A stretch of 64,000 bases of DNA from the NCBI GenBank assembly GCA_963517005.1, contig CAUQDZ010000002.1:12198-76197 (forward strand). The letters are read 5' to 3'. Position numbers and translations under genes: made by a program. This DNA is from an uncultured bacterium (GTDB lineage: Bacteria; Patescibacteriota; Gracilibacteria; Absconditabacterales; Absconditicoccaceae). The notes beneath the pieces were generated by a model. It made no database searches. It had not been told where the DNA came from and saw only the letters and a list, made by a program, of their open reading frames with translations. Below are positions 204 through 63,910 of the stretch, piece after piece (the first letter of the stretch is position 1; the number at the start of each line of letters is the position of its first letter).

Positions 204-260
204 AAATATTCCGAAAGAATAGGACGAAGAATAAAAAAGTCTGATTTCTTTCTTTGTTCT

Positions 261-346
261 GCCGGGGTGGTGGAATTGGTAGACACGAAGGACTTAAAAT
301 CCTTTGGGACTTAAATCCCGTGCCGGTTCGATTCCGGTCCTCGGCA
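261..346 (+). tRNA. tRNA-Leu, anticodon UAA (type II tRNA with long variable arm)
   Basis: Acceptor stem gccgggg/cctcggc. Anticodon stem aagga/tcctt with loop cTTAAaa. Long variable arm tgggacttaaatcccgt. T-arm gccgg-ttcgatt-ccggt. Confidence 0.85.
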
Positions 347-380
347 GTCGCTATTGTTTTTAATTGTTATTGTTATATCA

Positions 381-644
381 ATGGGATTTACCGTTCGAAG
401 AACAGGAGATTTGAATACTAATGAAAGAATTATCTCTTTTTACAAAAAGGAGCTTTGGTCTTCACATATCTTGGATAAAGCTAAGAAGCAAGTGCATTAT
501 GGAACTAAATGGTATAGAAAATTTGTAAGTTATGATTTTCCTTCTTCTAGAAGATATAAGAGAATGAGAGCGATTGTTTCAGATGCTTATAGAAAGACAA
601 AGAGAAAATACAATACTCTAGCACAACTTGGAAAGATTGTGTAA
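381..644 (+). CDS. hypothetical small basic protein
   Basis: Open frame from ATG 381 (the track ORF 354..644 starts at TTG) to TAA. Lys/Arg-rich with no recognisable motif. It fills the gap between the tRNA and rplU. Confidence 0.3.
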   Translation: MGFTVRRTGDLNTNERIISFYKKELWSSHILDKAKKQVHYGTKWYRKFVSYDFPSSRRYKRMRAIVSDAYRKTKRKYNTLAQLGKIV

Positions 645-670
645 ATTTATTTTGATATTTTGTATAAAGA

Positions 671-988
671 ATGTATGCAGTAGTAGATTTACAGGGACAT
701 CAATATATCGTTTCAGAAGGTGCTGAAATTGTAGTTGATAATCTTGGAGTTGCTCAATCTGAAAAATTCATAGCAGATAAAGTACTTGTGGCTTTTAGTC
801 AGGATGGTAAGGAAGTGAAAGTTGGAAAACCCACTATTGAGGGTGCAACTGTTGAATTTGAAGTAGGAGCTACTCAAAAAGGTGAAAAGGTAAAGATTCT
901 TAAGTTTAAGAGAAAAAATAGATATGCAAGACTTAAAGGATTTAGACCTCTTCAGACTATTTTAACTGTTAAAAAGATTAACGCTTAA
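671..988 (+). CDS. rplU: 50S ribosomal protein L21
   Basis: MYAVVDLQGHQYIVSEGAEIVVD... is a typical L21 N-terminus. The stop overlaps the infA start (TAATG). Confidence 0.95.
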   Translation: MYAVVDLQGHQYIVSEGAEIVVDNLGVAQSEKFIADKVLVAFSQDGKEVKVGKPTIEGATVEFEVGATQKGEKVKILKFKRKNRYARLKGFRPLQTILTVKKINA

Positions 989-61000: not shown

Positions 61001-63450
61001 AGGAGCAAGAAATTTCATATAATCATATCAAAGAACAATTACTTACTGATTATTCCTCAGCAAACAAACACTTTAAATCTCAAAGAAGACGACTTGCTAG
61101 CAAGTACGGTATAGGATCAGCTGCTCTCTCTGCAGGAACTGCTATTGGAATGCAGTATATGATGGGAACAGGAATGTTTTCGACAGAATCGGTTTCCCAT
61201 ACGGTTTCTTCAACTTCGAATGCATCCTCAAATGCTAATTTTAATCTATGATCTCATCAATTAGCAGAAGAAAATCAGATTCATTCTACGGTAGCAGATC
61301 AGTTTTCATCACTAGGAGACAAGGCAAACGTAGTAGCTCATTATGGTGCTGGAACAGATGCAACATTAGTTCGTGCGGGGTCTCAGGCACTTTGAGAGTC
61401 TGCTTATCAAGCGAAAGTAAATGCTGTTGCAGATCAGATTAAGCATCTTGCACTTTCTTCAGATCAAAAGGCAGCTTTCTTAAAAGAGTTGACAAATAGA
61501 CCGTGGGAGATGGATCGATCAAAAGCCTTTACCAATGATTATCTCCAAGGAGATAGATGTGCTGAGGGGCTTTTGCAGATGGCAAAAGGACTTGCTGATT
61601 CGGGAAATCAAACACTTATTCCAGATCTTGCTTATGATGCAGGAAGGAGCATCGCAGGAAATACACTACATAATTTAGGTGAGAGATCGTTCAATCTCGG
61701 ACTAGAAATTACTACACAAGCAGTACAAAATCAGCCAGGTAGTTGATCTACACGATTTGTGCCAATTGTTTCTTTCTTTAATACCTTCAAAAAAAATCCA
61801 AAATCTGAAGAAAAACAGGATAAAAATTCAGATTTAGATTCTACTATTCAATCAAAAGAACAAAATTCTGAAAAGCTTTCTCAGTATTCATCAGATTTGA
61901 AGCAATCGCATATTGCATGAGATCAAGATTGAGAAAAATTAGATAGTTCTACATCTACCTCAGCAAAAGTTGCAACAGGAGTAGCACTCGCTGGAGCAGC
62001 TGCAGTAGCTGTAGAAGCCCAAAGAAATCCTTCAAAAGCTCGTCAGTATCGAGAATCATTCAAGTCATGAGCTAAAAAATTTGGTGGAAAGATTAAAGAA
62101 TCTCGAAATAAAGCTGCTCTAAAGATTAGAGAAAAGAGGCCTACAATCAAAGAAAAGTCTAAAAAGGGACGAGAAAAGACTAAGGAAATTACTCATGATG
62201 GGGTCGAAAAAACAAAAGAAATTCGAAATTCAGCCTCAGAAAAAGTAAAAGAAAAATCTCCAGAGCGAAAGGAAAAAGCAAAACAGGGACGAGAAAAAAC
62301 AAAAGAAATTACAAAAAAATGAGCACAAAAAACAAAAGAAAAAATACAATCACTTAAAAATAGACTGTTTGATAAAGAAGGAAATGAGGGAGAAACGTCA
62401 GGTTTAGAGGATTTTGAAACATTAAAAAAGAGTGAAGCGGCGAAGTATTTTCTTGAGACTAAGGGGTGGATGAATCAGAGAGATGAAAACTGATATACAG
62501 TATTGGTAGAAAAAGAAGTTTTAAAACCTAAACAGAAAATTGATTATCACTGAAAAGTGGTTTATCTTACTGATAAAATTAATGATCATTATGTGATTGC
62601 TTATATAGAGCATAATGGGGTACTTGAGCCAAGAGTATTCCGTAGATCAAATTCAGGAGGAAATTGGCATGTAGTACCTGGTTATGATGGCTCAAGAGTT
62701 TCTAAAGGTGAATTTGTTAAGAATATCTCTTATGAAAAAGGAACTGTAGTACATCGTGATTTCAATCAAATTCTAGATGATATACTAGATCAAAATGAGA
62801 GAGTATCTTCTATGGAATTTGTGATGAAAGACGCTTATGGAAAAGATATTCCTCAATCTGCATATCAGGAGATTGGAAAACATTACGATGATATGCCAAA
62901 AGCAGCACAAGAGTTCTATGATGAAACTATCGTGTATGATGAGCTTATCCAAAATGAGTTTAATGTAAATAGTACCCGGAACAATGCTTTTGCAAACTAT
63001 CAAAATGTGGAACAAATAAAAACTTATTATGACAAGCTCAATTTGTCTAGGAAAATGGATTTTAGTGAGAGTCATATTATAGATAGTTATCATTCTGAGC
63101 ATAAATATCTTGGTAGTGTTGAAAATCAAGTGATGACAGCAAAAATAAAAAGTTCAAATCCTGACTTTGATGGACGTGAAGTGCAGATTACGATTTCTAC
63201 TGCACAAAAAGATGGACTTTCTTGGGTTGAAAATATGGTTTTTTCAGATGATTCAGGGACAAGTTTTCTAACTCAAAAAAATCCAATTTCTGCTGGACTT
63301 TTGACTACTAAACCTTTGGAATATGAAATTCAATTACCTCAATTTGTAAGAGAGGATCCTCTTTTAGAAGACTATATGCCTTATATTGATATTCGTCCTC
63401 TTATGCAAAATAATCCATTGATAAAAGAGTGGAAAAAAATACAATCTTAA
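58081..63450 (+). CDS. giant hypothetical protein (1789 aa): coiled-coil and acidic regions, Gly/Ala-rich hydrophobic segments, K/E-rich repeats
   Basis: Track ORFs 58066.., 58441.., 59662.., 61489.. and 62557.. share frame 1. I read every codon in all gaps and found only TGA, never TAA/TAG. Stop TAA 63448-63450. Start ATG 58081 (a TTG at 58066 is possible). Confidence 0.7.
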
Positions 63451-63502
63451 TGATCCTCATACGAAGGAATCAGCTTTTTACTCCTTTAAATCTCCAAAAA
63501 GA

Positions 63503-63838
63503 ATGAACGCAAACAACAATCAACATCTAGAAGAAGCTCATGAAGAAGATTTTCTCAATGATCTTTTACTTGAAGCTGGGTTTGATCCAGAAGAAGATGA
63601 CTTTGATCAACTTAAAGCAGAGTTAGAGCCAGTTTTGATGGATAGGATTATGACGAGTGTTTTTGATGCACTCACAGACCCTCAGAGAAAAGAAATTATG
63701 AAGCTTTTTGATGCAGGAAAAGAAGCCGAAGCATTAGAAAAAATTGAAAAACTAATTCCAGATTACGATAATTTTTTGGCGGAAGTTTTTGCAAATTTTC
63801 ACGATGAATATTTGGCTAATATGGAGCTTCCTGAATAA
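63503..63838 (+). CDS. small acidic hypothetical protein (111 aa)
   Basis: Clean ATG..TAA ORF, Asp/Glu-rich, no recognisable motif. Confidence 0.5.
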   Translation: MNANNNQHLEEAHEEDFLNDLLLEAGFDPEEDDFDQLKAELEPVLMDRIMTSVFDALTDPQRKEIMKLFDAGKEAEALEKIEKLIPDYDNFLAEVFANFHDEYLANMELPE

Positions 63839-63859
63839 TCATTTTTAATCTAAAAAAAT

Positions 63860-63910
63860 AAAAATCTGACTTTTGATCTTGATAGTAATCTACAAGGTAG
63901 TCAGATTTTT
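63860..63910 (+). terminator. long-loop hairpin formed by an inverted pair of the AAAATCTGAC motif
   Basis: aaaaatctgac (63860-63870) and gtcagattttt (63900-63910), an 11-bp perfect inverted repeat followed by a T-run. Confidence 0.5.

Follow-up and report, generated by a model that had tools for sequence, protein, structure and literature searches.

We find that a short, near-palindromic DNA word with the core consensus AAA(A/G)TCTGA(C/T)TT is over-represented in a 64-kb stretch of an oral bacterium of candidate division SR1 (Absconditabacteria; contig CAUQDZ010000002.1, positions 12,198 to 76,197; hereafter the window, whose numbering we use throughout), and that this motif is genuine, departs strongly from randomness and has biological structure. 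Of the explanations we considered, the best supported is the one already offered by the initial annotation of this DNA: the motif may act as a DNA uptake enhancing sequence comparable with the DNA uptake sequences (DUS) of Neisseriaceae and the uptake signal sequences (USS) of Pasteurellaceae, which would have spread by biased uptake and recombination and later been co-opted into terminators. We put the probability of this reading, which is drawn by analogy, at about 0.42. The motif was studied in the window and in about 40 kb from the same or sister species (about 100 kb in total), and compared across 80 SR1 species loci around rpoA and three pilB loci.

The exact 12-mer AAARTCTGAYTT occurs 22 times in the window against 0.51 expected from dinucleotide shuffles, an approximately 43-fold excess, and 76 times against 8.1 when one mismatch is allowed; the top 10-mer, AAAATCTGAC, is found 18 times against 0.6 expected under an order-3 Markov model, so the over-representation claimed in the initial annotation is borne out. 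Within spacers, shuffled separately, 13 exact 12-mers stand against 0.06 expected (about 200-fold), and in an unbiased k-mer scan of the window sub-words of the motif lead the ranking at each word length, k = 8–11. The A/T-rich flanks are not the explanation, because 39 of the 377 AAAR-N5-YTT words have a TCTGA/TCAGA core while the runner-up core accounts for 5, and because such flanks accompany 10% of all TCTGA occurrences but only 0–5% of control pentamers. Every position at which the motif had initially been placed carries it or a close variant (exact, one-mismatch or CTGA/TCAG-type); 6137-6150, for example, reads AAAATCTGAC followed by GA, and 6161-6188, 20936-20962 and 40672-40697 are hairpin variants of the CTGA/TCAG type.

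Alignment of 48 copies on TCTGA shows that A is favoured over G at the R position of the core, that an A-run (63–73% A) occupies positions -15 to -10, and that a T-rich stretch with (C/T)TTG at +13 to +16 follows 3′ of the core, a subset of copies reading TTTT-N-ATCTTG; the ATCTTG, which is frequent, stands some 8 nt from the core. The core has dyad symmetry, and together with its flanks it makes up an imperfect palindrome some 37 bp long, whose left side is A-rich and whose right side is T-rich. Its R and Y positions vary independently: among 30 strong copies, ATCTGAC and ATCTGAT occur 10 times each, and GTCTGAT and GTCTGAC 5 times each. Some copies resemble one another over 30–48 nt of flanking sequence, and 16607-16649 and 24288-24330 are 91% complementary over 43 nt. 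Searches of the window, including Rfam, tied no long element, tRNA or Rfam family to the motif copies.

Gene-relative statistics were all computed with genetic code 25, in which TGA encodes glycine, as in candidate division SR1/Absconditabacteria. Under the standard code (table 11) the open reading frames (ORFs) are short and fragmented and nearly every gene is broken, and these ORFs were dropped; once TGA is read through, ORFs cover 114 kb instead of 46 kb, and the longest reach 1,798 codons. The code-25 gene set contains 204 in-frame TGA codons (for example 3027-3029, 24592-24594 and 46260-46262), among them codons at conserved glycines in RpoA (RGF[G]HTLGNALRR), a GspE-type ATPase (GRV[G]LYE) and NrdD (LY[G]TPAE). 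The motif has neither TAA nor TAG in any of its six frames, so that it brings no stop codon under this code. Because it does contain TGA, a sense codon here, the gene boundaries of the initial annotation were off, and the case is a caution for recoded genomes generally, in which a TGA-containing motif makes genes resemble spacers.

Sites with at most one mismatch lie in 19 of the 40 spacers of at least 40 bp, far from the ‘nearly every spacer’ initially described, and they lie in every class of spacer: 10 of 27 tandem, 3 of 6 convergent and 6 of 7 divergent (2.9, 5.9 and 4.3 sites per kb, respectively). Because all three classes carry sites, the motif does not track the starts of genes or their ends; a terminator should shun divergent spacers and a promoter or operator convergent ones, and neither pattern is seen, which argues against a purely transcriptional signal. 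Many spacer copies lie 10–80 nt 3′ of stop codons and many 20–80 nt 5′ of start codons. Two, at 19107 and 45552, abut TTGCTT-16/17-TATAAT, and elsewhere copies keep no fixed distance to -35/-10 boxes or start codons.

To call the motif intergenic, as the initial annotation did, captures its density but not its range. Exact copies are about 12-fold denser in spacers than in coding DNA (1.9 against 0.16 per kb), and spacers, 11% of the sequence, hold 59% of them, yet under code 25 genes contain 10 of the 22 exact copies and, when up to one mismatch is allowed, 36 of 59 sites. In 44 kb of coding interiors, trimmed of the first 180 and last 30 nt of each gene, the 8-mer AAATCTGA occurs 34 times against 13.3 ± 3.0 expected and the full 12-mer 8 times against 2.0; in 300 synonymous-codon shuffles, which preserve the protein sequence and its codon usage, neither count was ever reached. 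This excess over codon shuffles therefore indicates that something acts on the DNA word itself, beyond transcription signals. The coding copies are both sense and antisense and occupy all frames, and the exact copies as a whole are independent of orientation (12 on the plus strand, 10 on the minus strand), in line with what had been expected of them, within a single replichore of uniformly positive GC skew.

Roughly 8–9 of the 21 spacer copies lie in the tip or stem of a good hairpin (z ≤ -2). Those at 236, 46984 and 48880 occupy hairpin tips, whereas the inverted +− pairs at 52688/52713 and 63861/63898 form stems; these pairs, and the hairpin at 17747-17768, had been proposed from the outset and prove real (folding energies in Table 1). 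Spacer copies nonetheless average a z of only -1.9, many single copies fold more weakly than -7 kcal/mol with z near 0, and the commonest variant, ATCTGAC, leaves an A.C mispair if the core folds on itself. Close pairs counted over the window, the sister species L093 and the oral relative L017 comprise seven +−, one −+ and one ++; in the +− arrangement the stem has the A-run on its 5′ side and the T-run on its 3′ side, and such pairs fold at -12 to -19 kcal/mol with T-runs following. A stem-loop and U-run 3′ of a gene fits the pairs and some apex copies, but not the copies in divergent spacers or coding DNA, and ordinary terminators free of the motif also occur in the window. The same +− bias and terminator co-option have been reported for DUS and USS (PMC1852404; PMC3630211; bioRxiv 10.1101/2025.10.24.684340), and the rationale for the bias has likewise been described for DUS/USS pairs (PMC1852404). 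A tyrosine-recombinase core site, with 13-bp arms and a 6-bp spacer, was suggested by the 19-nt spacing of all four L093 pairs and rejected, the window pairs being spaced at 24 and 36 nt and single copies dominating.

The motif appears to be lineage-specific, belonging to the window’s species and an abundant oral sister clade: enrichment is found in the former, in the oral clade at 81% RpoA identity (L016–L019, L021 and L023) and in L093, whose PilB is 88% identical and whose gene order in the region differs. The 8-mer AAATCTGA is the top spacer 8-mer in L016, L017, L019 and L023. In L093 the word is even more prominent than in the window, with AAAAATCTGA observed 16 times against 1.0 expected, 11 exact 12-mers in 4 kb of spacer, and four +− pairs with 13-bp stems 3′ of genes within 21 kb; the coding 8-mer excess is replicated there as well (11 against 3.4 expected). 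Among the loci compared, no convincing enrichment appears in L014, L015, L024–L026, L094 (PilB 81% identical), RAAC1_SR1_1 or most environmental SR1, and human oral taxon HOT-345 (L020) shows little or none. Conservation in sister genomes, which the initial annotation had named as a check, is thus found in L093 and the 81% clade but not in other SR1 lineages. Two identical 32-nt motif-pair terminators in L093 (1909-1940 and 2545-2576) stand 3′ of two adjacent paralogous DUF5684 genes, and the terminator was therefore duplicated along with its gene.

Every SR1 species compared has a terminator hairpin in the rplT/tRNA-Leu spacer, but motif-rich species alone make it out of the motif: the motif forms the tip in the window’s species and the left arm in the 81% clade, where a degenerate right arm still pairs, by G.U wobbles that differ between L016 and L017, while motif-poor species have unrelated GC-rich stems. 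Elsewhere, L093 lacks the copies that stand 5′ of pilB and in the pilB/pilC gap but has copies at other places in the region; the sites at 19107, 22504 and 27064 are degraded in some strains, and the site at 16625 is perfect in some strains and degenerate in the window. Individual sites thus turn over between strains and species at a sustained overall density. Mobility of the kind seen in miniature inverted-repeat transposable elements was rejected, as strains show no clean presence/absence polymorphism of the motif. A scan of viral contigs with AAAAATCTGACTTTT gave, among the matches listed, only single chance matches.

No convincing dialect of the motif emerged among the SR1 loci compared. 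The word AAAAAGCTGA (L030/L031) is dispersed but probably coding-driven, through EKAE-type peptides, and was not accepted; AATCTGA is frequent in L033–L037, L089 and L091, though without structured flanks and in AT-richer DNA, and was judged unconvincing; and the top k-mers of L042, L044, L045, L047, L048, L051, L074 and L087 were rejected as unrelated tandem arrays with repeats of at least 7 bp. Spacers of several other SR1 species do hold 7-bp tandem-repeat arrays of species-specific unit (ACTTAAT, AATTTAG/AATTCAG, GCACTCT or (A)GAACTTAG), at 9129-9217 in L042, 2982-2996 in L044, 9237-9265 and 12669-12774 in L048, 14571-14585 and 16773-16787 in L051, and 1747-1761 and 7699-7713 in L074.

We infer an uptake-like role because the sharp word, its strand symmetry, its presence in all spacer classes, the coding excess, the +− terminator pairs, the A-leading consensus, the lineage restriction and the turnover of sites match the published DUS/USS pattern (PMC3630211; PMC1852404; bioRxiv 10.1101/2025.10.24.684340). 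By this analogy the word would resemble DUS and USS in every feature testable from sequence, with a receptor search in the DNA examined coming out negative. A surface DNA receptor, probably on a type IV pilus driven by PilB and PilC, would prefer double-stranded DNA bearing the word; ComEA and ComEC would import one strand, and RecA would recombine it into the chromosome. Such a bias would make the word accumulate at any position that tolerates it, chiefly in spacers and to a lesser degree at synonymous or permissive positions in coding DNA. Beginning with A, ending in T and nearly palindromic, single copies could settle at hairpin tips, and +− pairs, forming stems with A/T tails, could be co-opted as intrinsic terminators.

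Several observations weigh against this reading. The property that defines DUS and USS, a motif-dependent preference in uptake, is here supposed by analogy, and a core so short, AT-rich and near-palindromic also suits a dimeric DNA-binding protein. The roughly 12-fold excess of spacer over coding density exceeds that reported for DUS and USS, enrichment within genes is modest (about 2.6- to 4-fold) and weaker than theirs, and in L093 the coding 12-mer is not significant (1 against 0.67 expected). Strain-variable and island regions, in a small sample, show no depletion of the motif. DNA uptake among Candidate Phyla Radiation (CPR) members is usually seen as nucleotide scavenging, for which self-preference is unneeded.

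The uptake machinery itself is a further point on that side. ComEC, ComEA, DprA, RecA and a prepilin-type protein were not found in the approximately 100 kb examined for the species, so that the distribution, coding excess, +− pairs, lineage restriction and site turnover fit the uptake reading offered initially while the competence genes (comEA, comEC, dprA) and the DNA-binding minor pilin it called for did not turn up. A heuristic scan for ComEC (long multi-pass ORFs, H.H.D[HR] motif) gave nothing usable in any locus examined; no ORF in the window, L001, L002, L008, L010 or L093 has the prepilin signature G-F/Y-T/S-L-x-E, leaving no candidate there for a ComP-type receptor; and the neighbours of pilB and pilC have no Pfam match. 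The pilB/pilC pair (45636..48138), judged from sequence, is a possible DNA-uptake pilus core and serves here as context. The initial annotation had drawn support from these genes; they are indeed present, but since SR1 lineages without the motif have them to the same degree, they lend it no support and count among the points against. Among relatives, ComEC and ComEA, together with type IV pili, are encoded by the Absconditabacterium Vampirococcus (PMC8080830), and Saccharibacteria, also Patescibacteria, are naturally transformable (PMC10633639).

Next in probability, though unlikely, comes a repeated hairpin module without any role in uptake, of the kind represented by repetitive extragenic palindromes (REPs) and bacterial interspersed mosaic elements (BIMEs) or by a shared terminator. 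The palindrome of A-run, TCWGA tip and T-run would then serve structurally, in RNA or DNA, ending transcription or stabilising the 3′ ends of mRNAs, and would have spread through duplication, through gene conversion or through a dedicated enzyme, for instance a REP-associated tyrosine transposase (RAYT)-like protein. The hairpins formed by some 8–9 of 21 spacer copies, the many copies 10–80 nt past stop codons, the strong spacer skew and the 30–48 nt of flank similarity among some copies (91% in the case of 16607-16649 and 24288-24330) would all suit such a module, as would the rplT site, a terminator in every SR1 compared whose G.U-compensating changes keep the stem in L016 and L017. What such a module does not lead one to expect is copies in 6 of 7 divergent spacers, or coding interiors enriched in both orientations, with 10 of 22 exact copies in genes where an extragenic element should have none; nor does it sit well with the A.C mispair in the commonest variant or with single copies folding too weakly for a stable unit (mean z -1.9 in spacers, many weaker than -7 kcal/mol). 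Motif-free ordinary terminators coexist in the window, strains show no insertion presence/absence polymorphism, and no RAYT-like gene turned up among the Pfam-annotated genes of the examined loci, where no test was aimed at RAYT.

Less probable again, and in our view distinctly unlikely, is a role as target of an abundant, sequence-specific DNA-binding protein (HU/IHF-like, YbaB/EbfC-like, a global regulator or a roadblock factor) that reads the near-palindrome AAARTC-W-GAYTTT between bendable A/T tracts. Its appeal lies in the dyad-symmetric core with independently varying R/Y half-sites, the A-tract and T-tract flanks about one helical turn from the core, the strong spacer preference that extends to 6 of 7 divergent, promoter-containing spacers, the two copies abutting -35 boxes, and the presence of ybaB and HU-family genes; the TCAGA orientation also bears what we take, as a lead rather than a test, to be a loose likeness to the IHF consensus WATCAANNNNTTR. 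However, sites of nucleoid proteins and regulators are usually degenerate, and some 900 per Mb, conserved exactly as 10- to 12-mers, would be atypical of them; copies between convergent genes, the bias towards +− hairpin pairs and positional turnover between sister species are unpredicted; and individual sites degrade in some strains. A by-product of lineage-specific repair, methylation or mutation bias, like the highly iterated palindrome HIP1 and no signal at all, would account for a short, near-palindromic, strand-symmetric and lineage-specific word over-represented in coding and non-coding DNA alike, but it is improbable given the 12-fold spacer skew, the extended asymmetric flanks, the +− pair bias and the recruitment into terminators, which suggest selection on placement, and no cognate methyltransferase was identified. 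Very improbable, finally, is a promoter, UP element or alternative-sigma recognition element: the copies at 19107 and 45552 lie directly 5′ of TTGCTT-16/17-TATAAT and many others 20–80 nt 5′ of start codons, but copies occur in both orientations without fixed spacing to -35/-10 boxes or start codons, also between convergent genes, as paired hairpins past stop codons and inside coding DNA, and the copy upstream of pilB is not conserved in L093. Sigma-54-like and -35-like readings were rejected on spacing. The initial annotation had listed a promoter or UP-like element and a terminator building block as alternatives; neither alone fits copies that lie in convergent and divergent spacers and in coding DNA.

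The copies located in the window are collected in Table 1, together with the two pilus genes.

Table 1. Motif copies and pilus genes in the window (copy positions refer to the 12-mer unless a hairpin or pair is given)
Feature	Position	Strand	Evidence and remarks
Exact copy, rplT/tRNA-Leu spacer	236..247	+	Apex of hairpin 220-261; fold -12.6 kcal/mol, z -3.3
Exact copy in 1494-aa surface protein gene	8529..8540	-	Conserved in strains L003, L005, L006, L013
Exact copy in 1494-aa surface protein gene, sense strand	9020..9031	+	Exact match and strain comparison
Exact copy in 1750-aa CLIPPER-domain gene	13607..13618	-	Exact match
One-mismatch copy with degenerate inverted partner, convergent genes	17742..17768	+	Bidirectional terminator-like hairpin (17747-17768), -14.1 kcal/mol; 9 pairs, then CTTTTTG (terminator scan)
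Exact copy, divergent SLT-like gene/tRNA-Arg spacer	19107..19118	+	Abuts TTGCTT-17-TATAAT promoter-like site on - strand; core G to A in strains L007 and L009
One-mismatch copy, rpsO/rpsA spacer	19730..19741	+	Mismatch scan
One-mismatch copy, divergent spacer	22504..22516	-	Degraded in strain L007
One-mismatch copy 3′ of nrdR, in A-run ... T-run imperfect palindrome	24201..24212	+	Mismatch scan, fold
Exact copy between NrdR-box-like palindromes and nrdD	24301..24312	-	Within 43-nt stretch 91% complementary to 16607-16649
Exact copy in nrdD	25676..25687	-	Exact match
Exact copy, divergent spacer or first nrdG codons	27064..27075	-	C to T in strain L007
Two exact copies, −+ configuration, in/around divergent spacer 5′ of trmD	28883-28894, 28921-28932	-, +	Exact match
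Exact copy in trmD	29250..29261	-	Exact match
Exact copy in 571-aa gene, antisense	36994..37005	+	Exact match
Exact single copy, convergent MFS transporter/261-aa gene	42194..42205	+	No strong hairpin
Exact copy 5′ of pilB	45552..45563	+	Abuts TTGCTT-16-TATAAT; not conserved in sister species L093
pilB (T2SSE ATPase)	45636-46955	+	Pfam
Exact copy between pilB and pilC	46984..46995	-	Apex of long hairpin; fold -17.7 kcal/mol, z -4.0
pilC (T2SSF platform)	47050-48138	+	Pfam
Exact copy, convergent genes	48880..48891	+	Apex of terminator-like hairpin; fold -9 kcal/mol
Exact copy 5′ of ybaB	49418..49429	-	Exact match
Inverted +− pair 3′ of relA/spoT homologue	52688-52699 (1 mismatch), 52713-52724 (exact)	+, -	Fold -11.7 kcal/mol
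Exact copy, cobW/relA spacer	55036..55047	+	Exact match
Exact copy in cobW-family gene, antisense	55371..55382	+	Exact match
Exact copy in 1789-aa gene	58420..58431	-	Exact match
Inverted +− pair (63861/63898), between DUF5663 gene and convergent gene just outside window	63861..63909		Hairpin then T-run; -19.2 kcal/mol, z -5.3

Gene content was taken from precomputed Pfam hits on strain-level contigs, with TGA-free small genes as anchors, and comprises ribosomal proteins, rpoA, two giant surface proteins, nrdR, nrdD, nrdG, trmD, pilB, pilC, ybaB, a relA/spoT homologue and a cobW-family gene. RpoA is 95–96% identical to that of an oral metagenome-assembled genome labelled ‘candidate division SR1’ and 79–82% identical to its counterparts from further human-oral SR1, HOT-345 among them. 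The organism turns up very often in public metagenomes, and 2,827 collection blocks index one of the window’s ribosomal proteins. Window parts 1-17000, 18800-39000 and 39000-59000 are 100% identical to contigs of three samples (L004, L008 and L011), and other strains diverge by 2–20% in places where those contigs match perfectly; this patchwork suggests a widely shared, recombining population. The region 5′ of the ribosomal cluster is strain-variable (about 2450-5200 in L002, L005 and L006; 1-5740 in L003), with a T4SS-pilin gene and a 764–791-aa RNase_T-domain gene in some strains and a phage-integrase/packaging island in one, and it also bears motif copies.

Other features of the window are recorded here in their own right. 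Between nrdR and nrdD, at 24235-24290, lie two NrdR-box-like palindromes, TACTACATATAGTATC and ACTAGATGTTGTGGT, with the motif copies at 24201 and 24301 on either side. An inverted duplication (21274-21805 and 43671-44162; 83–97% complementary, 22 kb apart) carries a paralogous small gene and the near-identical terminator AAAAAGAAGGATAGAATTCTATCCTTCTTTTT. Within the 760-nt spacer 5′ of pilB, a tandem duplication of period about 257 nt (44763-45297) holds repeated short hydrophobic ORFs on the minus strand. The 333 nt at 31354-31686, free of genes and motif copies and with no Rfam match above noise, may encode an unrecognised small RNA.

To our knowledge, uptake sequences have been described only in Neisseriaceae and Pasteurellaceae, and our literature search found no paper linking them with CPR bacteria or Patescibacteria. 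With somewhat less than an even chance, and by analogy, the motif would join DUS and USS as a third independently evolved uptake-sequence family, the first from beyond the Proteobacteria, in an ultra-small, TGA-recoded, episymbiotic oral SR1. Were this so, it would imply self-preferential natural transformation in a CPR lineage through a new receptor, and genetic exchange beyond nucleotide scavenging: in at least some CPR episymbionts DNA import would favour their own kind, their pili and ComEC serving recombination besides feeding, and a third independent case would be at hand for studying the co-evolution of uptake specificity with genomic motif enrichment. Adding AAAAATCTGACTTTT to donor DNA might then raise transformation efficiency in SR1 co-cultures, which at present are without genetic tools. 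Should the motif not tag DNA for uptake, it nonetheless remains the repeated word that dominates in an abundant organism of the human mouth and a component of that organism’s terminators; it also marks a clade boundary within oral SR1.

Set beside known repeat families, the motif shares with HIP1 of cyanobacteria (GCGATCGC) its character as a short palindrome over-represented in coding and non-coding DNA. HIP1, too, is lineage-specific and of unproven function; unlike the SR1 motif, it is GC-rich and not known to be concentrated in spacers or terminators. The REP and BIME elements of Enterobacteria and Pseudomonas are likewise short imperfect palindromes, single or in inverted pairs and mostly 3′ of genes, present in hundreds of copies per genome and able to terminate transcription or stabilise transcripts. 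REPs, however, are GC-rich, stably self-folding, strictly extragenic and linked to RAYT transposases, whereas the SR1 core is AT-rich, weakly folding and enriched inside genes.

Against the Neisseriaceae DUS (AT-GCCGTCTGAA and its dialects, read by the minor pilin ComP), the motif differs in belonging to another phylum (Patescibacteria/SR1) with genetic code 25, in being AT-rich and near-palindromic, so that a single copy can occupy a hairpin tip, in its much stronger spacer skew, and in that no ComP homologue or other receptor was found in the DNA examined. The likenesses are many: both are words of 10 to 12 nt, massively over-represented and equal between strands, with copies in genes and spacers, inverted +− pairs serving as terminators with A/T tails, and apparent restriction to a lineage, and both belong to mucosal or oral hosts with type IV pilus genes. 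The SR1 motif also has a central CTG, the functionally essential core of DUS (PMC3630211). The GTCTGAA initially said to be shared with the Neisseria DUS is mere resemblance; the shared GTCTGA may be coincidence, and neither it nor the central CTG is used as evidence here.

USS copies lie mostly in coding DNA, whereas 59% of exact copies of the SR1 motif lie in the 11% of sequence that is spacer. The core of the Pasteurellaceae USS (AAGTGCGGT with AT-rich flanks) is unrelated in sequence, and its receptor is a prediction only, ComN/PpdA (PMC12616744). The architecture is nevertheless much alike: USS, whose helically phased AT-rich flanks bring the consensus to about 30 nt (PMC1852404), and the SR1 motif both have an A-leading core between AT-rich flanks, copies in coding DNA, a minority of copies paired in terminators and many that stand single.

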